In this document: positions 1,880-57,982 of the stretch, piece by piece
Layout of the letters: each line of letters starts with the position of its first letter
Position numbering within the stretch: the first letter of the stretch is position 1
From: an uncultured delta proteobacterium
GTDB taxonomy: Bacteria; Desulfobacterota; Desulfobaccia; Desulfobaccales; 0-14-0-80-60-11
Assembly (NCBI GenBank): GCA_963697965.1
Contig: OY969108.1
Coordinates: 1,055,997 to 1,119,996, forward strand
Direction of reading: 5' to 3'
DNA length: 64,000 nt
The notes under the pieces: generated by a model
What the model was told of the DNA's origin: nothing
What the model saw: only the letters and a program-made list of their open reading frames with translations
The model's database searches: none
Position numbers and translations under genes: made by a program

Positions 1880-1938
1880 AACCTTATCGATTTCCCCTTT
1901 CTTGAGGGAAAACTTGACAGTTAAGGAGATGTTTCCCG

Positions 1939-2229: not shown

Positions 2230-2249
2230 TCCCGGGAGCAAGGGAGCCC

Positions 2250-3254: not shown

Positions 3255-3332
3255 AGTTCATCAAGAATCACAGCCTTAACGAGTTTAATCAAATTGACGA
3301 ACGATGCCCCAACCCGGTCAAGCATTGACCCT

Positions 3333-3977: not shown

Positions 3978-4108
3978 TATGGCCGTAGGGTGGACTGCTG
4001 CTGGCTGCCGGCTGGAAGCTTTTTCCCAGAGGTCCCATTTTGTGTATAATAAATTAAGATCACGGGCGCGAACTAAGACGCCAAAGCACCAGAGACCTCC
4101 TGGACCAT

Positions 4109-14251: not shown

Positions 14252-14331
14252 CTTAAGGGCGGGCGTCTTGCGGGGAAGTGGTTTGGGGTGTGAGAGACTG
14301 GCCAAGGCCCCGGCGGCGAAAGGGTAAACAG

Positions 14332-15192: not shown

Positions 15193-15195
15193 CTC

Positions 15196-15975: not shown

Positions 15976-17254
15976 AACCATCAAGGTCGATATGCTGGCC
16001 CGGGTGGAGGGTGAAGGTGGCCTCTACCTCCGGATCAAAGGCGGCGCCGTGGCCGAAGTCAAGCTGAAGATCTTCGAGGCGCCCCGGTTATTCGAGGCTT
16101 TCTTGAGAGGCCGGCAGTTCCACGAAGCCCCGGATATCACCGCCCGCATCTGCGGCATCTGCCCGGTGGCCTACCAGATGAGCGCGGTGCACGCCATGGA
16201 GGACGCTCTGGGAGTGAAGGTCACCGGCCCCTTGAGGGACCTGCGCCGCCTCCTTTATTGCGGTGAGTGGATCGAGTCCCACGCCCTCCACATCTTCCTG
16301 CTCCACGCTCCGGATTTCCTGGGCTACCAGGACGCCATCAGCCTGGCCCAGGACCACCCGGAGGTGGTCAAAATGGGCCTCCGGCTCAAAAAGATCGGCA
16401 ACGAGGTGGTCACCCTGGTGGGGGGCCGGGAGATCCATCCCATCAACGTCCGGGTGGGGGGCTTCTACCGCGTGCCCACCAAACCGGAACTGGCCCCGCT
16501 GGCGGAGGAACTCAAGTGGGCCCGGGACGCGGCCCTGAAGACGGTGTGCTGGGTGGCGGCTCTCCCCATGCCGGAGTTTGAGCAGGATTACGAATTCGTC
16601 TCCCTGCGCCCTGCCCAGGAATACCCCTTCAACGAAGGACGGCTGGCCTCCAACCAGGGCCTCGATATTGCGGTTCAGGACTACGAGGCCCACTTTGCCG
16701 AGGAGCAGGTCCCTTATTCCAATGCCCTGCACTCGCGGCGCCAGGGCCGCGGTCCCTATTTTGTCGGCCCCCTGGCCCGCTACCATCTGAATTACGACCG
16801 CCTCTCGCCCCTGGCCCAGGAAGCCGCGCAGGAGGCCGGATTGAGCCGGGAGTGCCGCAACCCCTTCCAGAGCATCATCGTGCGGGCGGTGGAAACCCTG
16901 TACGCGGTGGATGAGGCTCTCAGGATCATCGCGGCCTACGAACGGCCCGAGCAACCGGCAATTAAAGCGGAGCCCCGCTCCGGGGTCGGCTGCGCCGCCA
17001 CCGAGGCGCCCCGGGGCCTGCTTTACCACCGCTATCGCCTGGACGAGTCCGGGGCCATCCTGGAGGCCAAGATCGTGCCGCCCACCTCCCAAAACCTGAA
17101 GATCATCGAACAGGACCTCTGGCGGTTCGTGGAAAAGCGCCTCGATTTACCTGATGACCAACTCACCTGGCAGTGCGAACAGTTGGTGCGCAACTACGAC
17201 CCTTGCATCTCCTGCGCCACCCACTTTTTGAAAATCCGGCTGGAGCGGCAGTAG
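15965..17254 (+). CDS. NiFe hydrogenase large (catalytic) subunit, group 3b type
   Basis: It has the N-terminal [13 protein letters not shown] (RxCGxC) and C-terminal DPCISCATH (DPCxxCxxH) Ni-Fe ligands, followed by a 9-aa tail removable by the protease. Confidence 0.92.
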
Positions 17255-17263
17255 AGGACCGCG

Positions 17264-17893
17264 GTGGCTTCTCCCCAGAATTTTCGACTGCAGATCATCG
17301 GCGTCGGCCAGGAATGGCGGGGCGACGACGCGGCCGGACTACTGGTGGCGCGACTTTTGAAACCGACCCAGACCCGTGGGGGCGGAATTGGCGGTCCAGC
17401 CCCGGGAGGGCGCCCACCCGGGAGCGTCCCCACGGCGAATGCTGCTTCTTCGACGCCAAATCGGCCCCAGGTGACAGTTTTGGAAACCTCCGGTGCGATA
17501 AGCGATTTGCTGGCTGCCTGGGATGGGGCCGACGCCGTTATTCTGGCCAACGCCGTCCGGGGCGGCGGGCCGCCCGGCAAGATTTACCGGTTCCCGGTGC
17601 ATGAGGCCGCCTTGCCGGTAGATCTGTTTCCGGCCGCCTCCACCCACGCCTGGGGGATCGGCCAGGCCGTGGCCCTGGGGCAGGCGCTCCGGCAATTGCC
17701 GCCTTATCTGGTGGTCTATGGCATCGAGGGCCGGGACTTTGGCCCCGGACAGACAATTTCTGCGGCGGTGGCCGAGGCCATTCCGGCGGCGGCCCGGCTG
17801 ATATTGCAGGAAATCCAAGAGGTTCTGGGGGAGGGGAGCAAAGCCTGCCCTTTGCTCGGGCGGCCAGGGACGGCCGCCCCACCCAATTTCTAA
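17264..17893 (+). CDS. hydrogenase maturation endopeptidase (HyaD/HycI family) with a Gly/Pro-rich insertion
   Basis: It starts at a GTG. The motifs IIGVGQEWRGDDAAG and ...AVILANAV...GIG fit the protease family. An insert of about 35 aa, QTRGGGIGGPAPGGRPPGSVPTANAASSTPNRPQ, separates them. Confidence 0.75.
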   Translation: MASPQNFRLQIIGVGQEWRGDDAAGLLVARLLKPTQTRGGGIGGPAPGGRPPGSVPTANAASSTPNRPQVTVLETSGAISDLLAAWDGADAVILANAVRGGGPPGKIYRFPVHEAALPVDLFPAASTHAWGIGQAVALGQALRQLPPYLVVYGIEGRDFGPGQTISAAVAEAIPAAARLILQEIQEVLGEGSKACPLLGRPGTAAPPNF

Positions 17894-18193: not shown

Positions 18194-18404
18194 AAGGAAT
18201 TGGTGGGCAGTGCCCACCCTACATTTTTTCTTGGTAGCCGTTTCAATAATTTTCCAGCCCTGGACACGAGACCCCGATGATCGGCGGCCACAGGCCGCCC
18301 TCTAAAATCCTATCTCTCTGCTTATAGGGCGGGCTGTGCCATCGCCTTAAGCGAAAATATTTGATCTCTGGGCGTGTAGGGTGGGCATTGCCCACCAATT
18401 CCTT
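18194..18404. repeat. MITE/BIME-like element with 30-bp terminal inverted repeats enclosing further REP-like units
   Basis: AAGGAATTGGTGGGCAGTGCCCACCCTACA (18194-18223) is the reverse complement of 18375-18404 with one mismatch. Each arm contains a GTAGGGTGGGCA-N-TGCCCACC hairpin. The interior has two GGCGG-type palindromes. The right end touches the radA stop codon. Confidence 0.7.
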
Positions 18405-19771
18405 CACTTGGGAAACAGGCTGCGGATGGCCGCGGCCAGGGTTTCCACTCCCAGGAGTTCCAGCCCGGGGTAGTCCCCCAGGCGCTCTTTTTGGCGCAGG
18501 GCCAGGAGGGCGCGGCGGAACCCCAGCTTATGCCCTTCCTTGAGGCGCACTTCCGGGGCGCTCACCGCCCGGATCTCCCCGGTGAGGCCCACTTCTCCGA
18601 AGATCAGGGTGTCCGCGGGCAGCGCCCGCTCCAGAAAGGAGGAGGCCACGGCCAGGGAGATCCCCAGGTCCGCGGCCGGTTCGGTGAGGCGGACCCCGCC
18701 GGCCACGTTGACAAAGAGATCCTGGCCGCTCAGGCCCAGTCCCACCCGCTTTTCCAGGATGGCCACCAGCAGCGACACCCTCCCCGGGTCCACTCCCATG
18801 CTTTGGCGGCGGGGCAGGGCCAGGGAGGAGGGGGACACCAGTGCCTGGACCTCCACCAGGATGGGGCGGGAGCCCTCAAGGCTGGGGACCACCGCGGCGC
18901 CGGGGACCTCCAGGGACCGCTCCGCCATGAAAAGGCCCGAGGGGTTGTCCACCTCCAGGAGGCCGGCCTCCTGCATCTCGAAGACCCCCAGTTCCTGGGT
19001 GGGCCCGAAGCGGTTCTTCACGGTGCGCAGCAGCCGGAAGGAGTGGCTGCGGTCCCCTTCCAGGTAGAGGACCGTGTCCACCAGGTGTTCCAGGGTCATG
19101 GGGCCGGCGATGGCGCCTTCCTTGGTGACATGGCCGATGAGAAAGGTGGCGACCCCGGTGAGTTTGGCCTGTTGCACCAGCCGAAAAGCTGTCTCTCTCA
19201 CCTGGTTCAGGGAGCCGGGGGCCGCGGGAATAGTGGCTGTGTACATGGTCTGGATGGAATCGAGGGCCAGGAAGGCGGGCCGGACCTCTTCCACTATCTT
19301 GAGGATGTTTTCCAGGCAGGTCTCGGTGGCCACCAGCAGCTCGCCGGAGGTGAGGCCCAGGCGATTGGCCCGGAGTTTGAGTTGGGCTTCGGACTCTTCC
19401 CCGGAAATGTAAAGGCCGACCAGTCCTCCCCGGCTGAGCCGGTCCAGAACCTGGAGGATGAGGGTCGATTTGCCGATCCCCGGGTCGCCGCCCAGCAGCA
19501 CCACGGAACCCTGGATCACCGCGCCTCCCAGGGTGCGGTCGAACTCCTGGATGCCGGAGATCCGGCGCACCTCCGGGGCCGCAACCAGGCTAAGCAGGGG
19601 CAGGGGCTGGCCGCGCCGGGGAGGCAGTTGCGCCAGGCCGGGGGCCACGGGGGCTATTTCCTCTTCGGCCATGGAGCTCCAGGCGCCGCACTCGGGGCAG
19701 CGCCCCAGCCATTTGGCCGCCTGGTAGCCGCACTGCTGGCAGACAAACACCGGTCTTCCGGCCCGGGACAT
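18404..19771 (-). CDS. radA: DNA repair protein RadA/Sms
   Basis: It has an N-terminal zinc ribbon CQQCGYQAAKWLGRCPECGAW, Walker A GDPGIGKST, KNRFG, and a Lon-like C-domain. Confidence 0.96.
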   Translation of the reverse strand: MSRAGRPVFVCQQCGYQAAKWLGRCPECGAWSSMAEEEIAPVAPGLAQLPPRRGQPLPLLSLVAAPEVRRISGIQEFDRTLGGAVIQGSVVLLGGDPGIGKSTLILQVLDRLSRGGLVGLYISGEESEAQLKLRANRLGLTSGELLVATETCLENILKIVEEVRPAFLALDSIQTMYTATIPAAPGSLNQVRETAFRLVQQAKLTGVATFLIGHVTKEGAIAGPMTLEHLVDTVLYLEGDRSHSFRLLRTVKNRFGPTQELGVFEMQEAGLLEVDNPSGLFMAERSLEVPGAAVVPSLEGSRPILVEVQALVSPSSLALPRRQSMGVDPGRVSLLVAILEKRVGLGLSGQDLFVNVAGGVRLTEPAADLGISLAVASSFLERALPADTLIFGEVGLTGEIRAVSAPEVRLKEGHKLGFRRALLALRQKERLGDYPGLELLGVETLAAAIRSLFPK

Positions 19772-20035
19772 GGAGGCGAGAATCCTTGGAGAGCTAGATT
19801 GGTGATGCCCAACAAAAAACCTTGGTTGATCTTACTTGAACTGCGGCGCAAAAGACAATGATAAAACTTGGACTCGGCCAAGCTACCCTGTTTCTGTTGG
19901 CTTTTTATATTTGCTTAGCAAGGCGGTATTATAGCCACCAGGCGTCGTTTTTATTTTGGGTGACAGTAAGTTTTGGCTGGGATTTTCCAATTAACTTTAG
20001 CAGACCCACATCGATTCAATAACTTTGCTTACTTA

Positions 20036-20461
20036 TTATTCCAAGTCACCTAATCCATGTTCATCAAGTGCTCTACTAAGATCATCTATATCCTTTGTAG
20101 TGACGTTATATTTAATTTTAATTAACAGTTTTCCTAATTCTTTGATCAACGATTGCAGAGAACCATTAAGATCAAAGCCAGTATCTATAAATTTATGAAT
20201 TCTTTCCCTTAACTTTTTTACTTTTGGTAATATGATTGACGCATCATCCGAAAGAAGTACATTTGCTTCCATTATAATGTTATGTTTATAACGACTTACT
20301 ATATTCTCTGCGATTTTAACCCATTTTACGTCATATTCTCTTTCGATAACTGAATGAAGAAGATTTAGAGCTTCTTCTAAGGTATTAACGTTTCTATCTT
20401 TGTCATAGCTTGATAGCAAGCGCCTTGCGTTGATTAATTCTTCTGGTTCTGAAGCCTTCAT
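20036..20461 (-). CDS. hypothetical protein, ORFan B (141 aa, predicted all-helical)
   Basis: The ORF is clean in AT-rich DNA, where random ORFs are short. It starts 12 nt after the upstream gene stop. No motif was recognised. Confidence 0.75.
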   Translation of the reverse strand: MKASEPEELINARRLLSSYDKDRNVNTLEEALNLLHSVIEREYDVKWVKIAENIVSRYKHNIIMEANVLLSDDASIILPKVKKLRERIHKFIDTGFDLNGSLQSLIKELGKLLIKIKYNVTTKDIDDLSRALDEHGLGDLE

Positions 20462-20473
20462 CTGGACACCCCC

Positions 20474-21196
20474 TTATTTAACCTTGTTTAACATATTCAA
20501 CATTGTCTTTGGAATCTTTGCCTTTGAGATCTTTCTTGGATTAAGGGGCCTCCCTTCTTCGACAACCTTCTCAAGTTTAGGTATGGCATCATCTACAATG
20601 TGACTCGTTGCGTAATATACATATTCTGTTATAGGGTCATCTTTGCCCAGGAGTGCCTTAATATCAGCGCAAATTTCTTCGATCTTTTCACCAAAATCCA
20701 ATAGTTTGTTTAATGCCAGTTGATAATTGGGCATTCTTTTTTGTTCATATTTTTTTATAAAGTGAGCATAATCGATAATAATAGTTTCCATAATTTTATC
20801 CCTTTTAATTTTAAAACTTAATGAAAAGTTATTTAGTATCCTGATGGCTCCAAGGCTTATTACATATGTTTTTCGAGCTTTAAACTTTTCTCGCGAAGTT
20901 ATCAGCTTTTGGAAAATGGTGTGTTGACCCGACCATTCATCCTTGTCCTCGATGAGGTTATCCATCCAATGTTCGATAGCCAAGTCAATGACCTCTTTAA
21001 TTTTGACCTCGCCGTGGTTTGCAAGCCATTCAAGGGATTTGATGGATTCTTCGCTCAGTTTGAAGGTTGTGCGCTCTGATTTTTTATTAGAGAGATCAAA
21101 TTTATAATCCTTTCCTTTATATAGCCCCAAAGGGATTGATAATTCCTTTATGCTTCCTGATGAACTCTTTGGTTTTTCGCGGTTTTCGTTTTTCAC
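20474..21196 (-). CDS. hypothetical protein, ORFan A (240 aa) with two ribbon-helix-helix-like segments
   Basis: GTG 21196 has a GAGG SD 8 nt upstream. The segments RTTFKLSEESIKSLEWLANHGEVKIKEVIDLAIEHWM and RKTYVISLGAIRILNNFSLSFKIKRDKIMETIIIDYA each fit a strand-helix-helix pattern. This is pattern inference, not a database hit. Confidence 0.75.
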   Translation of the reverse strand: MKNENREKPKSSSGSIKELSIPLGLYKGKDYKFDLSNKKSERTTFKLSEESIKSLEWLANHGEVKIKEVIDLAIEHWMDNLIEDKDEWSGQHTIFQKLITSREKFKARKTYVISLGAIRILNNFSLSFKIKRDKIMETIIIDYAHFIKKYEQKRMPNYQLALNKLLDFGEKIEEICADIKALLGKDDPITEYVYYATSHIVDDAIPKLEKVVEEGRPLNPRKISKAKIPKTMLNMLNKVK

Positions 21197-21225
21197 AGAT
21201 TATGCCTCAAATATTTTGGTTACCA

Positions 21226-21256
21226 TAAATAGAATGATTACTAATGATATTGTCAA
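21226..21256 (-). promoter_or_regulatory. candidate promoter of the islet operon (TTGACA-19 nt-TATTTA)
   Basis: On the minus strand TTGACA lies at 21256-21251 and TATTTA at 21231-21226. The spacer is long at 19 nt. Confidence 0.3.
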
Positions 21257-21405
21257 GAATAAAAAAGCATCAAAAATGCAAAATATTCAAAAAACCATAG
21301 CAAATTGATAATAATTATAAAAAAATTTTGGGGGCAAAGCCCGCCCGAGGCAGGCGGTCAGGGTGGAGGGGGATTAACCGCCCCGGGCGGGGCGGTCCAC
21401 CATTT

Positions 21406-21573: not shown

Positions 21574-21818
21574 CGAGCCCAGGCCTGGTGAGTCTCAATG
21601 TTGGTGGCGCTGCCCAGCCCAACCCGACAGTTGACCGCCACCAGGGATCTTATATAAATATAACCTAAATTGGAGCGGCGGCCGGGATTAATGAATTTAT
21701 TATCCTTAAATATATGGTAAAAAAGCAGGATGAGGTAGGCCCGCGAAGCCCCGGCCAGCGGCCGGATTTTTGCACAAAACCGGGTCAATCTCTCATCCAA
21801 AGGGGATTTGGGTTCGGG

Positions 21819-23287
21819 ATGTCCGAGATGACCGTCAATGCCCTGCGCCAAGAGCTGGTGGCGGGAGCCGGCAGGCTGGCAGGACGGCGTTCTTTGCGAG
21901 TGTTGCGGGAGCTGGCGGCGGCCCGGAAGGCCAAGGTTTATTTGGTGGGGGGCTCAACGCGGGAGTTGGCCCTGGGGCGGACCGCTGCGGACCTGGATCT
22001 GGCGGTCTCGAGGCAAACCCTGGACCTGGCCCGGGAACTGGCCGGCGCTCTGGAAGGCACCTTTGTGCTCCTGGACGAAGGGGAGCGCACCGCCCGAGTC
22101 GTCTGGCAGGGAGAGATCCTGGACCTGGCCGAGTTCAGGGCCCCCGGACTGGAAGGGGATCTGAGGGGCCGGGATTTCACCATCAATGCGGTGGCCCTGG
22201 ACCTGGACGCCATCCTGGGTTTGGCTCCTCTCGCGGTCCTCGATCCCCTGGGAGGTCTGGAGGATTTGTCCCGGGGGTTGATCCGGATGGTGGCGGCGCA
22301 GAATCTGGCTGCAGATCCGTTGCGGCTGCTGCGGGCTTACCGGTTTGCCGCCACCCACGGTCTGGAGGCGACGCCGGATACCGAGGCCGCCATTGCCGGG
22401 CTGGCCCGGGAATTCTCCCGGGTAGCCGGCGAGCGGGTCCACCAGGAGTTGTTTCTCCTACTGGGAGCACCCCGGGCCGCCCCCGTTCTGGCCCGGATGG
22501 ATCGAGTTGGCCTCCTCACCCGGATCCTGCCGGAGCTGGAAGAGATGAAAGGGGTGGAGCAGGATGGTTATCACCACCTCGACGTGTTCCAGCACTCCCT
22601 GGCTGCGGTGTTGCATCTGGAGGAGGTGCTGGCGGAGCCGCGGCGGTACTTTGGGGAAATGGCTGCGGCAGTGGCCGCGGCGGGGGCGCCGCCCTGGCCG
22701 GCCCTGGTCAAACTGGCGGCCCTGTTCCACGACATTGGTAAACCGAGGGTTCGGGAGCGGCGCCGGGATCCGGACCGCTATACCTTTTATTTTCATGAGA
22801 AGCTGGGTATAGAGATCTTTGCCGGGGTAGTCCAGAGATTGCGTCTGAGCGCCGCTGAAGCCAAGGTGGTGAACACCCTTATCCGGCTGCATATGCGTCC
22901 TTTTTTGCTGCTGTCCGCCTTTCGGCAGCGGGAGCTGAGTTTCCGAGCCCTGGGACGGATGGTGCGGGCAGCGCGCCCGAGTTGCCAGGCCTCTTCACCC
23001 TGGCCATGGCCGACAGCCTGGCAGGTCAGGGGCCCACGAAACCTGCGGATTCCGAGGCGGTATTGGCCGAACTGGCGGATGAGGCCCTGCGTTTCCTCAA
23101 GGAGAAGCTGGAGCCCCAGGAAACCCTGCCCCGGCTGCTCAGCGGCGGCGACCTGATCCGGGAATTTCACCTGGAACCCGGCCCTCGCTTTCGAGACCTG
23201 TTGACCGCGGTGCAGGAGGCCCAGTGGGAAGGGATGGTGCGCACCCGGGAAGAGGCCCTCGGCCTGGTGCGCCGCTTGCTGGGGTAA
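21819..23287 (+). pseudogene. cca: CCA-adding enzyme / poly(A) polymerase family tRNA nucleotidyltransferase with HD domain, interrupted by a frameshift near 22975
   Basis: It has the PolyA_pol head GGSTRELALGRTAADLDLAV and RDFTINA, and an HD domain (HHLDVFQHS...LFHDIGKP). Frame 0 becomes nonsense after ...RALGRMVRAA, and frame 2 continues PELPGLFTLAMADSLAGQGP...LLSGGDLIREFHLEPGPRF. Confidence 0.85.
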
Positions 23288-49683: not shown

Positions 49684-49688
49684 AACCG

Positions 49689-49776
49689 CGCCGCCGCCCC
49701 CGGCGGGAATATGTAGCGCCGCCGCTCCCGGCGGGCCCTGCCTGCAGAATAGAACCGCCGGGGGCGGCGGTTCTAC
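49689..49776. repeat. cluster of three copies of the hairpin unit CCGCCG-CCCC-CGGCGG (two direct, one inverted)
   Basis: The units lie at 49689-49707 and 49717-49735 (one mismatch). The inverted copy sits inside TAGAACCGCC-GGGGGC-GGCGGTTCTA (49750-49776). GTAG heads occur at 49713 (+) and 49776 (-). Confidence 0.65.
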
Positions 49777-50085
49777 ACAAACCGAGGCTCATATTCCCAA
49801 ATAACGCCTAAACGGGCTCCGTAATGCCCGGCAATCGATCCATAAAGCCCCGGCGAATTTTTTATAAGCAGACTTTACCTGGAAATGGTTTATGCTTACT
49901 ATAATCGGGACTGCAATTCCCCCAGGTTATGAAGATGGGCAACGACAGGGCGCAGACCCCCCCGGCAGGCTCGTTTATAAGATAATCGTTGACAGGAAAA
50001 TCACAAATTATCCGGTTTTAATTTGCCGCCGGCGGGATAAGGTTAACCGAGGCACCCAGGAAACCCTTCCCTAACTGTAAGGAAA

Positions 50086-50649
50086 ATGGAGATGATCGAA
50101 ATCCGCTTTCACGGCCGCGGCGGCCAGGGCGCGGTGACTTCGGTGGAGCTGCTGGCCCTGGCGGCCATTGGCGAAGGTAAGTTCGCCCAGGGCTTCCCCA
50201 GCTTCGGCCCGGAGCGCCGGGGCGCTCCGGTAATGGCCTTCTGCCGGGTGGATGACCGGCGCATCCGTCTGCGCTGCAAGATCCTGCAGCCGGATGTGGT
50301 GGTGGTGCTGGACCCCTCGCTGCTGAGGATTCAAAACCCCCCGGCGGACCTGAGGGAAAACGGCGTCATCGTCTTGAACACCCACAAGAACGCCGCCGAA
50401 ATTCGCCGGGAGTACGGCTATCAGCATACCCTGGCCCTGGTGGACGCCAACAAGATCGCCCGGGAGGTCCTGGGGGTGCCTATTGTCAACACCGCCATGA
50501 TCGGGGCGTTAGTGCGGGCCACCGGGTTGGTGAAGTTGGAGTCCCTGGAGGAGCCTCTGAAGGAACGTTTCGGCCCCCTGGCGGTAAAGAATTTCAATGC
50601 CCTGAAGGTGGCCTTGGAGGCCACTACCATAGAGGAGCGCCAGTCGTGA
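50086..50649 (+). CDS. 2-oxoacid:ferredoxin oxidoreductase gamma subunit (Por/Vor type)
   Basis: [19 protein letters not shown]...[13 protein letters not shown] supports the call. Confidence 0.9.
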
Positions 50650-50936
50650 GCAAAGCATGGGACCAGGTGACCTGGCAGGAAATGGAGATCGGTTCGGTCC
50701 TCACCGAGCCGGGGTCGGCCCGGGCTTACCGCACCGGGGAATGGCGGTCCATGTATCCGGTATGGGACAAGAAGCGCTGCATCCAGTGCGGGGTCTGCTG
50801 GACCGTGTGTCCCGAAGCCGGCATCTCCGAGGACGCGGATGGCTATTTCGAGATGAACGACTATTGCAAAGGCTGCGGCATCTGCGCCAAAGAGTGCGTC
50901 ACCGGTTGCATCAGCATGGCGCCGGAGGAGGGATAA
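50646..50936 (+). CDS. 2-oxoacid:ferredoxin oxidoreductase delta subunit (2x 4Fe-4S ferredoxin)
   Basis: Its GTG overlaps the upstream TGA. It has CIQCGVCWTVCP and CKGCGICAKEC. Confidence 0.9.
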   Translation: MSKAWDQVTWQEMEIGSVLTEPGSARAYRTGEWRSMYPVWDKKRCIQCGVCWTVCPEAGISEDADGYFEMNDYCKGCGICAKECVTGCISMAPEEG

Positions 50937-52111
50937 TGGGCCACCGAGTCGGCATGGAAGTCTCCATCGCGGTGAGCCATGCGGTGCGACTGGCCCGGGC
51001 CGAGGCTATCGCCGCCTATCCCATCACCCCCCAGACCCACATTGTGGAGCATCTCTCCTCTTTGGTGGCCAATGGCGAACTGGATGCGGATTTCGTCACC
51101 GTGGAGTCGGAGCACTCGGCCATGAGCGCCAGCGTCGGCGCCGCCGCCACCGGGGCCCGCACCTACACCGCCACCAGCTCCCAGGGTCTGGCCCTGATGC
51201 ACGAGATCCTCTTCATCGCTTCCGGCATGCGGCTGCCCATCGTCATGACCGTGGCCAACCGGGCTTTATCGGCGCCCCTGAGCATCTGGAACGACCACAG
51301 CGACATCATGGCGGAGAAGGACATCGGCTGGATCCAGTTCTTCGTGGAGAACGGCCAGGATGCCTTCGACCACAGCGTCATGGCCTTCAAGATCGCCGAA
51401 GACCATCGGGTGCTGCTGCCCACCATTATTAATATGGATGGCTTCATCCTGACCCACGTGGTGGAACCCTTGGAGATGCTGGACCAGGAGACGGTGGACC
51501 GGTTTCTGCCGCCGCTTACGCCTTATCTCAAGCTGGACCCCAAGAAGCCCGTGACCATGGGGGCCTTCGCCTTGCCGGAGCTCTTCACCGAGGCTAAGAT
51601 GGCCCATCAGATGGCCCTGACCAATTCTTATGACACTATCCTGGAGGTCTGGCGGGAGTGGGGCGAGCTGACCGGGCGCCATTATCAACCGGTGGAGCGT
51701 TACCGCACCGAGGGCGCCAGGGTGCTGCTGCTTCTCATGGGGTCCCTAGCGGAAGTGGCGGAAGTGGCGGTGGATGAGATGCGAGAGGCGGGCCAGGCCG
51801 TGGGCCTGTTGAAGCCCAGGCTGTGGCGGCCTTTCCCCTTCGCGGATTTGCGGGCCGCCATGGCCGGAGCCGACCTGGTCATCGTCTGCGACCGGGCCAT
51901 GTCCCTGGGTGGGGCGGCAGGGCCGGTGCTGGCGGAAGTGCGCAGCGCCCTCTATCCTCTGGCCCAAAGGCCCCAGGTGTTGGGCTATATCGTGGGACTG
52001 GGAGGCCGGGACGTGCAGCCCCAGGTCTTCAAGGACCTGGTAAGCCACGCCCTCAAGGAAATTGAGCAAGGACCCAGGGAAGAATTCTACCTGGTGGGAG
52101 TGAGAGGCTGA
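50936..52111 (+). CDS. 2-oxoacid:ferredoxin oxidoreductase alpha subunit
   Basis: The start shows a TAATG overlap. AIAAYPITPQT...ESEHSAMSA...TATSSQGLALM supports the call. Confidence 0.92.
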   Translation: MGHRVGMEVSIAVSHAVRLARAEAIAAYPITPQTHIVEHLSSLVANGELDADFVTVESEHSAMSASVGAAATGARTYTATSSQGLALMHEILFIASGMRLPIVMTVANRALSAPLSIWNDHSDIMAEKDIGWIQFFVENGQDAFDHSVMAFKIAEDHRVLLPTIINMDGFILTHVVEPLEMLDQETVDRFLPPLTPYLKLDPKKPVTMGAFALPELFTEAKMAHQMALTNSYDTILEVWREWGELTGRHYQPVERYRTEGARVLLLLMGSLAEVAEVAVDEMREAGQAVGLLKPRLWRPFPFADLRAAMAGADLVIVCDRAMSLGGAAGPVLAEVRSALYPLAQRPQVLGYIVGLGGRDVQPQVFKDLVSHALKEIEQGPREEFYLVGVRG

Positions 52112-53106
52112 TGGAAAAATTCGGTCACGCCCAGAGCCAAAAGTTCGATACTTACGCTTCCCGGTTGTTGCCCCGGGAAGAATTCTTCACTTCGGGGCAC
52201 CGGTCCTGCCAGGGATGCGGCGAAGCCCTGGCGGTGCGTTGGGTGTGCAAGGCCATCGGCAAGGATGCCATCATCGCCCACGCCACCGGCTGCATGGAGA
52301 TCGTCTCCTCGGGCCTGCCCCAAACGGCCTGGATGCACCCCTGGATTCACGTGGCCTTTGAGAACACCTCGGCTGTGGCCTCCGGCATCGAATCCGCCTT
52401 GAAGGTCCTCGCGCGCAAAGGCAAACTCTCCGGCCCCATGCCCAAGGTGGTGGCCATGGGCGGTGACGGCGGCACCAGCGATATCGGTCTCCAGGCCCTC
52501 TCCGGGGCCCTGGAGCGAGGCACCAACTTCACTTACTTCTGCTGGGATAACGAAGCCTACATGAACACCGGCATCCAGAGGTCCAGCGCCACGCCCTTCG
52601 GGGCCATGACCACCACCTCGCCTCCGGGCAAGATGAGCATCGGCCAGCGCAACTGGAAGAAGGACATGGTGGCCATCGCCGTGGCCCACGGCATCCCCTA
52701 CGTGGCCACCGCCTCGCCCAGCTACCTCTTCGACCTTTACTTCAAGGTGAGGAAGGCCCTGGAAACCCCGGGCCCGGCCTACATCAGCGTCCTGTCGGTG
52801 TGCCCCACCGGCTGGCGCTCCGCCACCGATCTCAGCGTCCGCCTGGGCCGCCTGGCGGTGGAAACCGGTGTCTTTCCCCTTTATGAGGTGGTGGATGGCA
52901 AGTTTCGCCTCACCGTGGAGCCACCCAAATTACGGCCCGTCCAGGACTATCTCAAGCCTCAGGGCCGCTTTCGCCATCTGCGGGACCCGGAGATCCACTT
53001 CATTCAGCAGCAAATTCAAGCCAATTACGAGCTACTCCTCCAGAAATGCCAGTCGCCGTTTCCGGAATTCGCCCCGGTGCACATCCCTGAGGTTGATCAA
53101 AGATGA
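52111..53106 (+). CDS. 2-oxoacid:ferredoxin oxidoreductase beta subunit (TPP-binding)
   Basis: The start shows a TGATG overlap. It has GHRSCQGCGEAL and GGDGGTSDIGLQALS...NEAYMNTGIQ. Confidence 0.92.
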   Translation: MEKFGHAQSQKFDTYASRLLPREEFFTSGHRSCQGCGEALAVRWVCKAIGKDAIIAHATGCMEIVSSGLPQTAWMHPWIHVAFENTSAVASGIESALKVLARKGKLSGPMPKVVAMGGDGGTSDIGLQALSGALERGTNFTYFCWDNEAYMNTGIQRSSATPFGAMTTTSPPGKMSIGQRNWKKDMVAIAVAHGIPYVATASPSYLFDLYFKVRKALETPGPAYISVLSVCPTGWRSATDLSVRLGRLAVETGVFPLYEVVDGKFRLTVEPPKLRPVQDYLKPQGRFRHLRDPEIHFIQQQIQANYELLLQKCQSPFPEFAPVHIPEVDQR

Positions 53107-55487
53107 CAAATCCAGAAAAACTCGAAGCGATACTGTCTCATTATCAAGGAGGGTCCGCGGACCTGATTCCGGTGCTCCAGGACATTCAAGGGGCCTATAA
53201 TTATCTGCCCATGGAGATGTTGAAGTCGGTGGCCCAGAGGCTTAGGGTGCCTTTGACCCAGATCTACAGCGTGGCCACCTTCTACAATATGTTTTCCCTG
53301 GTTCCCAAGGGGCGCCACCAGCTCAGGGTCTGCCTGGGAACGGCCTGTCACCTCAAGGGCGGCTCCAGTCTGGTGCGGGGGCTGGAAAGGGATCTCAAGA
53401 TCAGCGTGGGCCAGACCACCGAGGACCAGCTCTTCACTCTGGAAACCGTTAATTGCCTCGGGGCTTGCGCCCTGGCCCCTCTGGTGGCCGTCGGCGCTGA
53501 ATATCACCCCCATGCCTCCACCCGCGAGCTCTCCCGGGTGGTCAAGCAGTTGCGGAAAGCCGCCGAAGAAGAACCGGAAGAAAAAGTGAAGGCGGAGGAA
53601 CCGGTGGCCGCCAAGACCGAAGGGCTCCCCCGGATCCAATCAGCCCAGGATTTGCATGCCTTCCGGGACCAGATTCTGTCCCAACGCGATCCCAACCAGC
53701 CCGTGGTCATCGTCTGCCACGGCACCGGCTGCCTGGCCAACAACAGCCCCGCAGTGGCTGAGGCCCTGCGCGGGGCCATCAAGGCCGCCAAGATCACGGC
53801 TAAGGTGGTGCCGCAGATCAAGACCACCGGTTGCCACGGCTTCTGTTCCCGGGCTCCGGTAGTGGTGGTCCAGCCCGCAGGCTTTTTTTACCAAAACGTC
53901 GCTCCGGACGATGCGGCCGAAATCGTGGCGACCACGCTCATGGAAGGGAAACCGGTGGACCGTCTCCTGGCGGTGGATTACCAGACCGGCGAACACGTGC
54001 CCCTCGAGAAGGACATCCCCTTTTACAAGCACCAGACGCGCATCGTGCTGAGCAACATCGGCAAGATCGACCCCACCGACGTCCACGACACCATCGCTGT
54101 CAACGGCTACCAGGCTGCGGTCAAGGCCATCACCACCCAGACCCCGGATGAGATCATTGATGCCGTGGAGGCCTCCGGGCTTCGAGGCCGCGGCGGCGGG
54201 GGCTTCCCCACCGGAAGGAAATGGCGTATTTGCCGGGGTGTCCCCGGAGATCAGAAATGCATTATCTGCAACGGTGATGAAGGCGATCCCGGAGCCTTCA
54301 TGGACCGGAGCATCATGGAGGGCGATCCCCACCGGGTGTTGGAGGGGATGATCATCGGCGCCTACGCCATCGGCGCCAGCGAGGCTCGCATCTATGTGCG
54401 CTCCGAGTATCCCCTGGCCGTCAAGCATCTGGGCATCGCCATAGAGCAGGCCCGGGCCATGGGCCTCCTGGGGAAAAACATCCTGGGCAAGGGTTTCGAT
54501 TTTGACATTAAGATCAGCAAGGGGGGCGGCGCCTTTGTCTGCGGCGAAGAGACTGCTCTCATCCGTTCGGTGGAGGGCGATATCGGTGAGCCGGTGCCCC
54601 GGCCCCCCTATCCGGCCCAACACGGTCTCTGGGACAAGCCTACGGTGATCAACAACGTGGAAACCTGGGCCACCATCCCGGAAATCATCAACCGGGGGGC
54701 GGATTGGCTGGCCGCCATCGGCACCGAAAAGAGCAAGGGCACCAAGGTCTTCTCCCTGGTGGGCGCGGTGAACCATACCGGGCTGGTGGAAGTGGCCATG
54801 GGCACCACCCTGCGCCAGGTTATCTACGACATGGGGGGCGGCATCGCCGGGAACCGCGACTTTAAAGCGGTCCAGATCGGCGGCCCCTCGGGGGGCTGCA
54901 TCCCGGCTCAGTATCTCGACCTGCCGGTGGACTACGACAGCCTGCAGTCCGTGGGCTCCATGATGGGTTCCGGCGGCATGATCGTCATGGATACCGCCAC
55001 TTGCATGGTGGACGTGGCCCGCTATTTCATGTCCTTCTGTCATGAAGAGTCCTGCGGCAAGTGCACCCCCTGCCGGGAAGGAACCAAGCAAATATTGGAG
55101 ATCCTTACCGAAATCACCCAAGGCCGTGGCACCCCGGAGCATCTGTCCCTGATGGAGGAACTGTGCGTCATCATGGACTCCGCCTCTCTCTGCGGTCTGG
55201 GCCAAAGCGCCGCCAAACCGATCCTCTCCACCCTGAAATATTTCCGGGAGGAATACGAGGCTCACGTCCGGGATAAGAAATGCCACGCCCTGGTGTGCCG
55301 GGCCTTGCTGAAATACACCATCGATCCGGAGACCTGCACCGGTTGCCTGGCCTGTGTGCGGGAGTGCCCGGCGGAGGCGATCCGGGGCGAAGCGGGCGAA
55401 CCCCAGGAACTGGACCAGGAACTCTGTGTCAAATGCGGCCGCTGTTATGAAATCTGCAAATTCGCAGCGGTTAAGGTAGAGTCATGA
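53103..55487 (+). CDS. fused NuoE-like / thioredoxin-like 2Fe-2S / NuoF-like flavoprotein with C-terminal 2x 4Fe-4S ferredoxin (HydB/HndC, Bfu-B/C-like)
   Basis: The start shows an ATGA overlap. It has NuoE Cys pairs (CLGTAC, CLGAC) and a second 2Fe-2S domain (CHGTGC...CHGFC). It also has an FMN/NADH site GRGGGGFPTGRKW and CNGDEGDPGAFMDR, the N3 cluster motif ESCGKCTPCREG, and CTGCLACVRECP / CVKCGRCYEIC. Confidence 0.92.
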   Translation: MTNPEKLEAILSHYQGGSADLIPVLQDIQGAYNYLPMEMLKSVAQRLRVPLTQIYSVATFYNMFSLVPKGRHQLRVCLGTACHLKGGSSLVRGLERDLKISVGQTTEDQLFTLETVNCLGACALAPLVAVGAEYHPHASTRELSRVVKQLRKAAEEEPEEKVKAEEPVAAKTEGLPRIQSAQDLHAFRDQILSQRDPNQPVVIVCHGTGCLANNSPAVAEALRGAIKAAKITAKVVPQIKTTGCHGFCSRAPVVVVQPAGFFYQNVAPDDAAEIVATTLMEGKPVDRLLAVDYQTGEHVPLEKDIPFYKHQTRIVLSNIGKIDPTDVHDTIAVNGYQAAVKAITTQTPDEIIDAVEASGLRGRGGGGFPTGRKWRICRGVPGDQKCIICNGDEGDPGAFMDRSIMEGDPHRVLEGMIIGAYAIGASEARIYVRSEYPLAVKHLGIAIEQARAMGLLGKNILGKGFDFDIKISKGGGAFVCGEETALIRSVEGDIGEPVPRPPYPAQHGLWDKPTVINNVETWATIPEIINRGADWLAAIGTEKSKGTKVFSLVGAVNHTGLVEVAMGTTLRQVIYDMGGGIAGNRDFKAVQIGGPSGGCIPAQYLDLPVDYDSLQSVGSMMGSGGMIVMDTATCMVDVARYFMSFCHEESCGKCTPCREGTKQILEILTEITQGRGTPEHLSLMEELCVIMDSASLCGLGQSAAKPILSTLKYFREEYEAHVRDKKCHALVCRALLKYTIDPETCTGCLACVRECPAEAIRGEAGEPQELDQELCVKCGRCYEICKFAAVKVES

Positions 55488-56206
55488 CCAGCGATTATGT
55501 GAATCTGACCATCGACGGCCAAACGGTGCAAGCGCAGCCCGGCCTGACCCTGTTGCTGGCGGCCCGGGAGCAGGGGATCGATATTCCCACCCTCTGTCAC
55601 CATGACGATCTCAAGCCCGAAGGCCATTGCCGCCTGTGCGTGGTGGAAATCGGCGAACCGGGCCGTACCCGCCTGGTGAACTCCTGCACCTATCCGGCGG
55701 AGCCGGGACTCACCGTGCAAACCGCCTCGGAGAACGTGCTTAAGGCCCGGCGTATGGTGCTGGAGTTGCTATTGGCCCAAGCGCCGGCGGCCGAGATTAT
55801 CCAGAAGATGGCCGCCGAGCACGGCGTCTACGAGACCCGCTTCAAAAAGGCGGATCCCCAGGCCCGCTGCATCCTCTGTGGCCAGTGCGTCCGCACCTGC
55901 CGGGAAGTGGTGGGGGTGAGCGCCATTTCCATGGTCTTCCGCACCCCGAAGAAAGTAGTTGCCACGCCCTTTAAGGAAGAATCCGCGGCCTGCATCGGCT
56001 GCGGCTCCTGCGTCTTCGTCTGCCCCACCAACGTCATCCCTTATACCGAGAAGGACGGCATCCGCACCGTCTGGGGCCGCCATTTCGAACTGCAACCCTG
56101 TAAGGTGTGCGGCAACTACATCGCCCCCAAGGCGCAACTGGAACACTGGGCCAAGATCACCGGCGATCCGCTGGAAAGCTTTTTTGTCTGCCGGGATTGT
56201 AGATAG
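55484..56206 (+). CDS. NuoG/HydA N-terminal-like Fe-S protein (2Fe-2S plus 4Fe-4S clusters) lacking any catalytic domain
   Basis: The start shows an ATGA overlap. It has CHHDDLKPEGHCRLCVVEI...NSC, CILCGQCVRTC and CIGCGSCVFVCP. At 240 aa it ends where the H-cluster or Mo domain would begin. Confidence 0.88.
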   Translation: MTSDYVNLTIDGQTVQAQPGLTLLLAAREQGIDIPTLCHHDDLKPEGHCRLCVVEIGEPGRTRLVNSCTYPAEPGLTVQTASENVLKARRMVLELLLAQAPAAEIIQKMAAEHGVYETRFKKADPQARCILCGQCVRTCREVVGVSAISMVFRTPKKVVATPFKEESAACIGCGSCVFVCPTNVIPYTEKDGIRTVWGRHFELQPCKVCGNYIAPKAQLEHWAKITGDPLESFFVCRDCR

Positions 56207-56272
56207 AAATGATTTGGGGGAAGGCCGGGGAATTCTTTCCCCCCAACCCCCTCATAAATAGGAAAAAATTTA

Positions 56273-56301
56273 GGGGCACGGCTTGCCGTGCCCCTTTTTT
56301 T
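56273..56301. terminator. bidirectional rho-independent terminator
   Basis: GGGGCACGGC-TT-GCCGTGCCCC is followed by TTTTTTT on the plus strand and preceded by AAAAAATTT, which gives a T-run on the minus strand. It lies between the convergent OFOR operon and pdxA. Confidence 0.85.
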
Positions 56302-56384
56302 AACACCCGCCCCAGGTTTTTGGTCAGGGCCTTTCCTGGGTGGGGAGGCCAGCTTAACTCCTAAGCGCTTCGCCCACTCCGGGG

Positions 56385-57422
56385 TTAACCCTGCTCCCCC
56401 AATCTCCTGTTGGCCATCCCGGCTGCCATTTTAATGGCGGCCTTGAGGCTGTCGGGGGCCGCCTGGCCGGTGCCTGCCAGGCCGTAGGCGGTGCCGTGGT
56501 CCACCGAGGTGCGGATGATGGGGAGACCCAGGGTGACGTTCACCCCGTCCAGGAAATGGAGAAGCTTCAAGGGAATGAGGCCCTGGTCGTGGTACATGCA
56601 AACCACCGCGGCGAACTCCCCCTGGCGGTGGCGCCAGAACAGGGTGTCGGCCGGGAAAGGGCCGGTGACCGGCAAGCCCGCGGCCTGGGCCTTCTTAATC
56701 GCGGGGGAGATGATCTCCTCTTCTTCGCGGCCGAACAGGCCGCCCTCGCCGGCGTGGGGGTTGAGGGCCGCCACCGCCAGGGGCGCGGCCGTGAGGCCGA
56801 AATCCCGGGCCAGGGCCTTGCAGGTGAGGGCGAAGAGGCGGTAGAGGCCATCGATGTTCAGGCGCCGGGGCACCTCGGCCAGGGCGCAGTGGATGGTGGC
56901 CAGAACGACCCGGAATTCTCCACCGGCCAGCATCATGGCCACCCCGGCGGCGCCGGTCTTGTCCGCCAGCAGCTCGGTGTGCCCAGGATAGGGGTATCCA
57001 GACAGATTCATGGAGAGCTTGCTGATGGGCGCGGTGACCAGCCCGGCTACCCGCTGGTCCAGGGCCAGCTCGATGGCCCGCAAGATATACGAGACCATGG
57101 CTCGGCCGCTGTCCGGAGTGGGATGGCCGAACTTCAGATCCCTGGGCGGCAGTTGGGACAGCACCATGAGGTCCAGGGTTCCAGCCTTATAGCGGCCTGC
57201 CTCTGGCCGCTCCGCCAGGTGAATGGCCAGGGCCGGGGAAAGCGAAAGGACGGCCCGCTCCAGGGCTGGATAGTCCCCCAGCACCAGGGGCCGGCAGAGC
57301 TGGTAGATGCTGGCGTCGGCCAGGGCCTTGACGATGATCTCCGGCCCTACTCCCACCGGATCTCCCATGCTCAGGGCCAATATGGGGCGCTGTTTTTCAG
57401 AAATGGCTTGGGCTCCAGTCAT
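56385..57422 (-). CDS. pdxA: 4-hydroxythreonine-4-phosphate dehydrogenase
   Basis: GDPVGVGPEI, YPGHTELLA, MYHDQGLIPLK and IIRTSVDHGTA support the call. Confidence 0.93.
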   Translation of the reverse strand: MTGAQAISEKQRPILALSMGDPVGVGPEIIVKALADASIYQLCRPLVLGDYPALERAVLSLSPALAIHLAERPEAGRYKAGTLDLMVLSQLPPRDLKFGHPTPDSGRAMVSYILRAIELALDQRVAGLVTAPISKLSMNLSGYPYPGHTELLADKTGAAGVAMMLAGGEFRVVLATIHCALAEVPRRLNIDGLYRLFALTCKALARDFGLTAAPLAVAALNPHAGEGGLFGREEEEIISPAIKKAQAAGLPVTGPFPADTLFWRHRQGEFAAVVCMYHDQGLIPLKLLHFLDGVNVTLGLPIIRTSVDHGTAYGLAGTGQAAPDSLKAAIKMAAGMANRRLGEQG

Positions 57423-57982
57423 CGGCCAGGACCACAGGGCTGGGAACGGCGCAGGTGCTCCTGAAAATTGGCTTCATAGCGGGCCGCCAGAGATGGGTCC
57501 CGAATCACCAGCAGATTTTCGGCGTTGTACTCTTCGGCGCTGCGGGTGAAGTTGAAGGACCCGGTAATCACCGTCTCCCCGTCAATGATTATAATTTTAT
57601 TGTGGGCGATTTGGTAGGCCGCGTCAATCCAGGTGGGCACCCCGGCCGCCAGCAGGGAGTGCAAAACGGAAAATTTGTCCCTCGCCTCCCCCGCGTCCAT
57701 GATGACCGCCACCTTAACTCCCCGGTTCTGGGCCGCGATGACCGCCTTGAGTATGGGCTGCGAGGTAAAGATATAGGCCTCAATGTGGAGAGAGCTGCGG
57801 GCCTGGCCCACCGCGGCGACGACGGCCTCGGTGCAGCCACCCTGAGGGGAAAAATAGACCGCCCAGCGCGGCTGGGCCGCAGCCTCAACCGCAGGGGCCG
57901 CCAGGGCCGGGGCCGGGGCCGCCAGGCACCACCACAGCGCCAGCGCTAGTCCGAGCGCTCTATTTATCTTCCTCAATCTCAT
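57419..57982 (-). CDS. secreted phospholipase D / Nuc-like endonuclease family protein
   Basis: It has a signal peptide (ALALWWCLAAPAPALA), a single HKD motif HNKIIIIDGETVITGSFNFT, and a 4-nt overlap with pdxA. Confidence 0.85.
   Translation of the reverse strand: MRLRKINRALGLALALWWCLAAPAPALAAPAVEAAAQPRWAVYFSPQGGCTEAVVAAVGQARSSLHIEAYIFTSQPILKAVIAAQNRGVKVAVIMDAGEARDKFSVLHSLLAAGVPTWIDAAYQIAHNKIIIIDGETVITGSFNFTRSAEEYNAENLLVIRDPSLAARYEANFQEHLRRSQPCGPGR

Follow-up and report, generated by a model that had tools for sequence, protein, structure and literature searches.

Gene content and organization of the locus

A stretch of 64,000 nucleotides from contig OY969108.1 of an uncultured, sulfate-reducer-like member of the Desulfobaccales (hereafter, the window) was analysed, and the operon considered here lies at positions 50086-56206 on its plus strand. 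It consists of six head-to-tail open reading frames (ORFs) encoding proteins of 187, 96, 391, 331, 794 and 240 amino acids (aa), in the order porC, porD, porA, porB, a bfuC-bfuB fusion gene and bfuA. The first four encode a 2-oxoacid:ferredoxin oxidoreductase (OFOR), and the last two encode redox proteins of the Bfu family. Judged by its gene content, the operon is a Por-Bfu, a kind of system already predicted from genomes in 2022. What is new at this locus is the fusion of bfuC with bfuB and a core of the fusion gene that is discordant with its flanks.

The Bfu family was described in a survey of HydABC homologs as having a conserved BfuBC core with flavin mononucleotide (FMN) and six Fe-S clusters, and as catalysing a tightly coupled reaction of NAD(H), ferredoxin and a third substrate (Schut et al. 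2022; Front Microbiol 13:946711; PMC9304861). Por-Bfu is listed there from genomes as an uncharacterised Type-2 member of the family, with the hypothesis that it links pyruvate to NAD and ferredoxin, and Dehalococcoides mccartyi 195 is reported to have a Por-Bfu cluster whose por-bfu genes are co-expressed. The original prediction for the window mentioned OFOR-linked Bfu variants as noted bioinformatically and left uncharacterised, which matches this listing; the name Por-Bfu was absent from it.

Direct reading of the DNA confirmed the predicted coordinates of the six co-directional genes and the overlap at each of the five junctions. porC and porD share GTGA at 50646-50649 (GTG start at 50646, TGA stop at 50647-50649), porD and porA share TAATG at 50934-50938 (porA ATG at 50936), and porA and porB share TGATG at 52109-52113. 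The last two junctions, between porB and the fusion gene and between the fusion gene and bfuA, are both ATGA, at 53103-53106 and 55484-55487, respectively. A purine-rich Shine-Dalgarno-like stretch lies 5' of every internal start, within the preceding gene. The porA frame is open upstream to 50657, and family profiles fit the ATG at 50936 as its start. Because profile alignments of PorC begin at residue 3 and the orthologous protein at locus L001 has 185 aa, porC may start at the second ATG, at 50092. An alternative in-frame ATG for porD is found at 50682; if used, the porC/porD overlap would become a gap of 32 nt.

The operon is preceded by an intergenic leader of about 400 nt (49684-50085, plus strand) that separates porC from purA and is alignable only among close relatives. 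GC-rich inverted repeats at 49689-49768 probably terminate purA. No sigma-70 consensus promoter was found on the plus strand of the leader by a promoter scan, and the TTGACA hexamer present at 49991-49996 is not paired with a canonical -10 element. A regulatory RNA was also considered and rejected, given that the leader had no Rfam match at the gathering threshold or at E<=1. Downstream, a strong intrinsic terminator at 56272-56302, readable on both strands and composed of a 10-bp stem (8 GC pairs) and a T-run, is located between bfuA (plus strand) and pdxA (minus strand). The genes flanking the operon are purA, pdxA, proC, nadC and valS, and a gene resembling acyl/acetate-CoA ligases lies two genes upstream.

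The Por subunits

The predicted OFOR gamma-delta-alpha-beta set was borne out by Pfam and NCBIfam, which assign the first four proteins to PorC, PorD, PorA and PorB. PorC (gamma; 50086-50649, plus strand, 187 aa) matches PF01558 (E 2e-39) and TIGR02175 PorC_KorC (215 bits against a cut-off of 81). PorD (delta; 50646-50936, plus strand, 96 aa, GTG start) matches TIGR02179 PorD_KorD (91.6 bits against a cut-off of 60) and PorD_Arch (E 9e-29) together with Fer4 families, and has two CxxCxxCxxxC [4Fe-4S] motifs. Both subfamily models, TIGR02175 and TIGR02179, thus score above their cut-offs. PorA (alpha; 50936-52111, plus strand, 391 aa) matches PF01855, PF17147 and PorA_Arch (486 bits), with the Protein Data Bank (PDB) chain 9bt4_B aligned at E 2e-108, and contains YPITPQT (Thr31) and VANRA..SAP..IWNDH (Arg109), as in the four-subunit pyruvate:ferredoxin oxidoreductase (PFOR, or POR). 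PorB (beta; 52111-53106, plus strand, 331 aa) matches PF02775 and PRK11865 (402.6 bits against a cut-off of 405), as well as PDB chain 9bt4_C (E 3e-85), and has the thiamine pyrophosphate (TPP) motif GDG at 118-120 and [4Fe-4S] cysteines C33, C36, C61 and C231. Together, the Pfam and NCBIfam assignments comprise the full four-subunit POR domain set: alpha domains I and II, beta TPP and [4Fe-4S], gamma domain III, and delta 2x[4Fe-4S].

For all four subunits, the top-ranked NCBIfam models are the pyruvate-specific Por models. The nearest solved structure for alpha and beta is the four-subunit PFOR 9BT4, in which YPITPQTHIVE is identical and the VANRA.SAP..IWNDH stretch is near-identical. In this stand-alone enzyme, PorABDG, the lengths and motifs of alpha, beta, gamma and delta are as in the window, but its delta subunit passes electrons directly to ferredoxin, whereas in the window three further modules are translationally coupled downstream. 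Extra docking domains in the Por subunits were looked for and nothing convincing was found; the lengths are those of stand-alone POR except for short termini.

Models for 2-oxoisovalerate oxidoreductase (VOR), oxalate oxidoreductase and the Pad system give strong secondary matches to the Por subunits. The last of these, PadEFGHI, is the NADH-dependent phenylglyoxylate dehydrogenase of Azoarcus evansii (NCBIfam NF045762-NF045766), an OFOR core with an NAD-reducing subunit. Its models match PorC, PorD, PorA and PorB far below equivalog level (PadE 167/300, PadF 66/150, PadG 309/700, PadI 225/700). Among the matches listed, no Pad model matches the fusion protein or BfuA, and therefore the NAD-linking proteins of the window appear to be without a Pad counterpart.

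The BfuC-BfuB fusion protein

The fifth gene (53103-55487, plus strand) encodes a protein of 794 aa whose domains were assigned with Pfam, NCBIfam and alignments to 7t2r_B and 9mqx_B. The BfuC/NuoE domain spans aa 1-152 (PF01257 covers aa 8-150) and contains the ligands of the C1 [2Fe-2S] cluster (C77, C82, C118, C122). A flexible linker at approximately aa 153-196 connects it to the BfuB part, which begins with the B5 thioredoxin-like [2Fe-2S] domain (C205, C210, C244, C248). This is followed by the NuoF module, with the FMN motif GRGGGGF at 362-368, the NADH motif GDEGDPG at 391-397 and matches to PF01512 and PF10589, and by the B1 [4Fe-4S] cluster of the NuoF helical domain (C651, C654, C657, C697). 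By alignment, C634, T672, H721, C727 and C732 form the B2/Zn site and correspond to C438, C476, H525, C531 and C536 of HydB from Acetomicrobium mobile; in the Bfu family, this site has the ligands Cys, Cys/Thr, His, Cys and Cys and binds [2Fe-2S] or Zn. The C-terminal B3/B4 2x[4Fe-4S] ferredoxin domain has CxxCxxCxxxC motifs at 745-755 and 775-785. Therefore, all of the cofactor sites that define the bifurcating BfuBC core (C1, B5, B1, B3, B4, B2-Zn and FMN/NADH) are present in this protein, and their ligands are invariant in the homolog alignment.

The stretch from residue 202 to 790 gives an end-to-end alignment with HydB of NiFe-HydABCSL from A. mobile (7t2r_B, E 7e-234) and with WorB (9mqx_B), and the top sequence matches of the fusion are all to enzymes whose bifurcation is experimentally established. 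An AlphaFold2 model of the fusion has a pLDDT of 86 and a pTM of 0.89 and falls below pLDDT 50 solely at linker residues 157-166. Its top Foldseek neighbours are all BfuB chains from experimentally bifurcating enzymes, although these are matches to single B chains and are uninformative on the packing of the C and B parts. Across the HydABC [FeFe], HydABCSL [NiFe] (7P5H, 8A6T, 7Q4V, 7T2R) and NfnABC (9BP5, 9N5U, 8OH5) enzymes, the BfuB/BfuC core is 50-61% identical to that of the window, and the shared elements include FMN, B1, the B2/Zn ligands, B3/B4, B5 and C1.

Characterised BfuB homologs that do not bifurcate (NuoEF/HoxF/FdsB type) are described as without B2-B5, and the B2 His is absent from them (PMC9304861). 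The BfuB part of the window protein, in which B2-B5 are all present, does not conform to this description of the NuoEFG/HoxFU/FdsBG enzymes. Natural NuoE-NuoF fusions are known among them, namely HoxF of the NAD+-reducing [NiFe]-hydrogenase (5XFA) and the beta subunit of Methylorubrum FDH1 (7VW6). Foldseek aligns both with the window fusion over approximately 720 columns, at 25-26% identity, and going by the description of Schut et al. they should be without the Bfu-specific clusters.

BfuA

The sixth gene, bfuA (55484-56206, plus strand), encodes a Type-2 BfuA of 240 aa that matches PF13510 and Fer4_7. It has the N-terminal fold of NuoG/HydA with the A1 [2Fe-2S] cluster (C38, C49, C52, C68), the A2/A4 2x[4Fe-4S] pair (C129, C132, C135, C139; C170, C173, C176, C180), and zinc-finger cysteines C206, C209, C236 and C239 (CxxC...CxxC). 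The signature of the His-ligated A3 cluster, HxxxCxxCxxxxxC, is absent; the corresponding region reads LLLAQAPAAEII, and PF10588 has no match in the protein. Its clusters are thus A1, A2 and A4 only, with neither A3 nor A5, and no catalytic domain is present. All 16 of the cysteines are invariant among 15 homologs. The domain content expected for the fifth and sixth proteins (NuoE, 2Fe-2S, NuoF and 2x4Fe-4S in the former; a NuoG N-terminus with no catalytic domain in the latter) was therefore found as claimed, and the missing A3 cluster and the zinc finger can be added to it.

The best PDB match of BfuA is WorA (9MQX_A, 247 aa, E 4e-50) of WorABCSL, the tungsten-containing aldehyde oxidoreductase-Bfu of A. 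mobile, for which bifurcation has been shown by experiment and which also gives the closest match in fold to the BfuB part of the fusion (TM 0.90 on target). Like the window protein, WorA has no A3 cluster and carries a C-terminal zinc finger. WorABCSL shares the Type-2 plan, in which a separate catalytic module feeds the A4 cluster of a short BfuA and the third substrate is of low potential. The window system differs from it in that a TPP-dependent OFOR takes the place of the tungstopterin WorSL, that BfuA is without the C-terminal helix that recruits WorS, and that there is no nanowire subunit of the WorS type. In HydABC, HydABCSL and NfnABC, by comparison, BfuA has a C-terminal domain that is either catalytic or a remnant, and in most cases an A3 cluster, whereas the 240-aa BfuA of the window leaves the catalytic site to four extra subunits. 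The sequence of BfuA ends in CRDCR, one residue past the last cysteine, with no C-terminal adaptor helix; for this reason, it matches the description by Feng et al. (2025) of the Por-Bfu BfuA homolog, which retains the zinc finger and is without the adaptor helix.

Conservation of the por-bfu arrangement

An alignment of BfuA homologs was scanned against one genome per species (representatives of the Genome Taxonomy Database, GTDB), and the loci were searched with the proteins of the window. The survey consists of the best 80 of 167 confirmed matches and therefore under-samples the partners of more distant BfuA proteins (Wor, Mbh and others). The 80 loci are from the Desulfobaccales, Syntrophobacterales and Syntrophales and from many Dehalococcoidia, and the 53 with at least 5.8 kb of sequence upstream of bfuA were considered informative. 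Of these, 49 have the colinear order porC-porD-porA-porB-bfuC-bfuB-bfuA, in both Desulfobacterota and Dehalococcoidia. With the exception of L074, loci with shorter upstream sequence agree with this order as far as they extend.

The gene junctions are similarly conserved. In 52 of 60 loci, porA and porB overlap by 1 nt, and porB and bfuC overlap in 42 of 59, with a gap of at most 20 nt in 14 more; distances at the bfuC/bfuB junction are unreliable, because the BfuB probe began after a variable N-terminus. Tight junctions are thus a conserved property of the operon and not a matter of chance.

The Por-Bfu systems of D. mccartyi 195 and of syntrophic Deltaproteobacteria have the same seven modules as the window in the same order (porCDAB-bfuC-bfuB-bfuA), and the same BfuA type (no A3, a zinc finger, no C-terminal helix) and BfuBC cofactor set. 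The orthologous Dehalococcoidia loci recovered here have 45-54% BfuA identity to the window. The window operon differs from these systems in having six genes instead of seven, with bfuC and bfuB combined in the single 794-aa gene, and in its Desulfobaccales host.

Fusion and exchange of the flavin core

The fusion is lineage-specific, a point absent from the original prediction. Most relatives are unfused, with a bfuC of 153 aa and a bfuB of 618 aa, including one on a 2.2-Mb contig that shares the purA...pdxA neighbourhood. The fused gene is found in the window, in L006 and L008, and in L087, a more distantly related por operon. That the fusion is an artefact of assembly or of a frameshift was considered and rejected, given that the 794-aa form recurs in independent assemblies (P0001-P0004, L006, L008) and that L087 represents a second fused lineage. 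Fused BfuC-BfuB proteins of 792-795 aa, 54-55% identical, are also encoded at L004 and L088 (a metagenome-assembled genome, MAG, of Planctomycetota), where they adjoin large BfuA-like proteins with FlpD and pyridine-nucleotide-disulfide-oxidoreductase domains and not a POR. C-B fusion is therefore found in other Bfu contexts too.

Nucleotide and protein identity windows and distance matrices delimit a discordant central segment of the fusion gene at 53343-55022 (plus strand; approximately aa 81-640). For instance, the window and L005 are 97% identical in PorB and 98% in BfuA, but only 65% in the core (aa 200-640). At the nucleotide level, identity between the two is 91-96% up to approximately 53200, 40-64% over 53300-54200, and 90-97% from approximately 55300. 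In contrast, the window and L086 are 90% identical in PorB, 84% in the core (aa 200-640) and 76% in BfuA. The operon flanks are 93-98% identical to L005 and L007, against only 65% in the core, which is closest to the L086 lineage; the core of L005 shares 82% identity with its counterpart in the unfused L010 lineage. This discordance between core and flanks indicates that a bfuC-bfuB cassette has been exchanged by recombination among close relatives, in a direction that the distance matrices leave undecided.

Other relatives carry a different core. In L086 (ENA k141_554338, positions 2-4930), porB is followed by a gene for a 1,214-aa NuoE-[2Fe-2S]-NuoF protein and then by bfuA, and the B3/B4 ferredoxin domain of the large protein is replaced by GltD-like Fer4_20 and Pyr_redox_2 domains (NADPH-type). 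Its domain content suggests that the POR of L086 may be linked to NADH and NADPH instead of NADH and ferredoxin. Three types of core can accordingly be distinguished: unfused BfuC and BfuB; fused BfuC-BfuB, as in the window; and a fused core in which a GltD-like NADPH domain replaces the ferredoxin exit. Tentatively, and with less than even confidence, the por operons in this clade could be viewed as a "plug-and-play" series, with one kind of POR and short BfuA joined to flavin cores that are interchangeable; on this view, the window enzyme would, if it confurcates, be the first bifurcating 2-oxoacid oxidoreductase to be demonstrated.

Two further arrangements were observed. In L082 and L083, the 642-aa protein encoded after porCDAB (L083, 8055-9983) combines the NuoF C-terminal [4Fe-4S] domain with Fer4_20 and Pyr_redox_2 and has neither a BfuC nor an FMN module; here POR is connected to a nicotinamide cofactor in yet a third manner. 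At L085 (GCA_049284095.1, 377-5868), P0007 is a 1,207-aa protein of NuoE-NuoF-GltD architecture with a methylenetetrahydrofolate reductase gene upstream and a Fer2_4 (NuoG-N-terminus-like) gene downstream; in Desulfobaccales, this arrangement may represent a redox module associated with the Wood-Ljungdahl pathway.

Predicted complex and alternative interpretations

Overall, the six genes probably encode one cytoplasmic Por-Bfu complex, a reversible pyruvate/acetyl-CoA enzyme coupled to both NAD(H) and ferredoxin. A single complex is supported, indirectly, by synteny, translational coupling and co-expression in D. mccartyi, and also by the five overlapping junctions and the one terminator. A bifurcating core is supported by the presence in the fusion of all sites that separate bifurcating from non-bifurcating homologs, and wiring of the Bfu type by the solved WorABCSL, in which electrons from a separate catalytic module enter WorA at A4. 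The proposal that the operon encodes an NAD(H)-linked, possibly confurcating Bfu-type 2-oxoacid oxidoreductase is therefore upheld by the cofactor sites and the linkage in 49 of 53 loci. We infer the physical complex, the contact between PorD and BfuA, the bifurcating stoichiometry, the pyruvate substrate and the direction from sequence and gene context.

In the proposed mechanism, PorCDAB would catalyse pyruvate + CoA <-> acetyl-CoA + CO2 at the TPP site, and electrons would pass one at a time from the PorB [4Fe-4S] cluster to the two [4Fe-4S] clusters of PorD. From PorD they would enter BfuA, move from A4 through A2 to A1, and then reach the B1 cluster and the FMN of the fused BfuC-BfuB. There, following the mechanism proposed for the Bfu family, an FMN/B1/C1 "flavobicluster" would split four mid-potential electrons, with a hydride going to NAD+ and two low-potential electrons going via B3/B4 to ferredoxin. 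The sum would be 2 pyruvate + 2 CoA + NAD+ + 2 Fd(ox) <-> 2 acetyl-CoA + 2 CO2 + NADH + 2 Fd(red). All steps would be reversible, and the reverse reaction would be a confurcation of NADH and reduced ferredoxin (Fd(red)). From textbook potentials, we estimate that NADH and reduced ferredoxin in equal parts supply electrons at approximately -390 mV, which is enough only with pyruvate kept low.

The main direction is probably anabolic, with the enzyme acting as a pyruvate synthase in which NADH replaces part of the costly reduced ferredoxin. This is favoured by analogy with Dehalococcoides, because in a metabolic model of that genus the four-gene POR is the sole route from acetate to pyruvate (PMC2930330), and because the operon has biosynthetic housekeeping genes and a CoA-ligase-like gene as neighbours.

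Several points weigh against this interpretation. The scores of the Por models fall under the equivalog cut-offs (PorA 485.7/550, PorB 402.6/405, PorC 208.7/225, PorD 99.4/120), and for this reason pyruvate is the best call rather than a proven substrate. BfuA is without the C-terminal helix by which WorA docks its partner. The por and bfu modules are separable in nature. In 2 of the 53 informative loci (L036, L046), bfuCBA occurs without por, and in 2 more (L082 and L083, both Syntrophaceae MAGs) porCDAB is followed by the GltD-like protein and a short bfuA; in L074 (Dehalococcoidales; 1594-5310), bfuA directly follows porB with no bfuC or bfuB, and a thiolase gene comes next. A GltD-like protein or domain thus stands in the place, or part of the place, of BfuBC in L082, L083 and L086. 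At approximately -500 mV, pyruvate oxidation could drive the reduction of NAD+ or of ferredoxin with no need for bifurcation, as Schut et al. acknowledge (PMC9304861), so that the energetic rationale for bifurcation is unclear. The direction draws on gene context and the Dehalococcoides analogy only. In addition, no publication on the purification or assay of a Por-Bfu was found in a literature search, and literature on D. mccartyi locus tags and on "bifurcating pyruvate" enzymes yielded nothing relevant.

The alternative that best survives, although it is unlikely, is a non-bifurcating NAD+-dependent pyruvate oxidoreductase, in which BfuA and the BfuC-BfuB protein would form a diaphorase wire (NuoEFG/HoxFU-like), carrying electrons from POR to NAD+ or from NADH to POR, and ferredoxin would not be obligatory. 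NAD+ alone makes pyruvate oxidation exergonic, according to the potentials in Table 1 of PMC9304861. NAD-linked OFORs exist, and the secondary matches to PadEFGHI models are of this kind. Moreover, the sibling operons in which the ferredoxin-binding domain has given way to a GltD-like NADPH domain show that some relatives can dispense with a ferredoxin exit. However, the fusion retains B5, the B2 His/Cys site and B3/B4, which the characterised non-bifurcating homologs do not have. The Bfu-specific ligands are also invariant across homologs, and a non-bifurcating enzyme is a poor fit with the Wor-Bfu precedent.

It is quite unlikely that the operon encodes two enzymes, an ordinary POR and a BfuABC that either serves a hydrogenase or formate dehydrogenase (Fdh) encoded elsewhere or acts as a stand-alone NADH:ferredoxin oxidoreductase. 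This would be consistent with the separate bfuCBA genes of L036 and L046 and the por-bfuA arrangement of L074, with a BfuA that has no known adaptor helix, and with a [NiFe]-hydrogenase cluster approximately 33 kb away, at 12643-17893 of the window. However, por and bfu are colinear in nearly all informative loci of two phyla, with overlapping porB/bfuC junctions, and catalytic genes adjoin bfuABC in the known NiFe-, FeFe-, Fdh- and Wor-Bfu enzymes (PMC9304861). The hydrogenase of the window is a self-contained enzyme of group-3b type that brings an Fe-S beta subunit and an FAD/NAD(P) gamma subunit of its own, and so needs no Bfu module. In line with the original claim, no catalytic partner for BfuA other than the OFOR was found within approximately 6 kb of the operon, and there is no second OFOR or Bfu paralog elsewhere in the 64-kb window. 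A hydrogenase or formate dehydrogenase as nearby partner was therefore rejected, as none lies within 6 kb and the [NiFe] cluster at 12.6-17.9 kb is self-contained and sulfhydrogenase-like.

The surroundings of the two loci without por were also inspected. In L036 and L046, no por gene lies within 9 kb of bfuC-bfuB-bfuA, and L046 has a Fur-family gene upstream and a methyltransferase gene downstream.

Improbable as well is the same complex acting on another 2-oxoacid (2-oxoisovalerate, 2-oxobutyrate, oxalate or an aryl-glyoxylate), which the sub-cut-off Por scores and the strong VOR, oxalate oxidoreductase and Pad matches would allow, but against which stand the first rank of Por models for all four subunits, the PFOR 9bt4 as closest structure, and Dehalococcoides, in whose metabolic model the four por genes are the sole pyruvate synthase and for which Schut et al. 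report the Por-Bfu cluster of D. mccartyi 195.

Other features of the window

The [NiFe]-hydrogenase cluster at 12643-17893 is sulfhydrogenase-like (group 3b-type), and its NCBIfam scores are all below the equivalog cut-offs. It comprises genes for the beta subunit (12643-13806), the gamma subunit with its FAD/NAD(P) domain (14278-15192), the delta subunit (15196-15975), the alpha subunit (approximately 15975-17254) and a HycI-type maturation protease (17264-17893). Beyond it, a low-GC island of approximately 1.4 kb (19850-21300; 31-40% GC against a background of approximately 62%) lies between radA (18404-19771, minus strand) and a CCA-adding/poly(A)-polymerase-like gene (21714-23156, plus strand). 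The island has two ORFs on the minus strand without a Pfam match (20474-21196, 240 aa; 20036-20461, 141 aa) and was probably acquired horizontally.

A dnaA gene with DnaA_N, Bac_DnaA and Bac_DnaA_C domains is present at 8549-9925 (minus strand), from which the window may be near the replication origin. Downstream of the por-bfu operon, a small PLD-family ORF at 57419-57982 (minus strand), weakly similar to the NucT nuclease and to DrmC of DISARM, overlaps the start of pdxA; in the syntenic relative L002, a metallophosphatase gene is found in its place.

Implications

Many strict anaerobes enter biosynthesis by making pyruvate from acetyl-CoA and CO2, a step that needs electrons of very low potential. 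The value of the locus lies in making the 2022 prediction testable rather than in discovery, and a specialist would not be surprised by it. It would be useful for a first biochemical test, as it has six genes, one subunit fewer, a single promoter-to-terminator unit, and relatives that differ only in the flavin core. These core variants would, if the interpretation holds, be natural experiments on the low-potential branch, and a TPP enzyme would join the proven partners of Bfu. If confurcation drives pyruvate synthesis, this would be the first demonstrated bifurcating 2-oxoacid oxidoreductase. If Por-Bfu couples pyruvate synthesis to NADH and ferredoxin, the redox and energy bookkeeping would change for Desulfobaccales, syntrophs and organohalide-respiring Dehalococcoidia, and this could explain how reductive carboxylation of acetyl-CoA is affordable for energy-limited anaerobes that assimilate acetate, Desulfobaccales and Dehalococcoidia among them.

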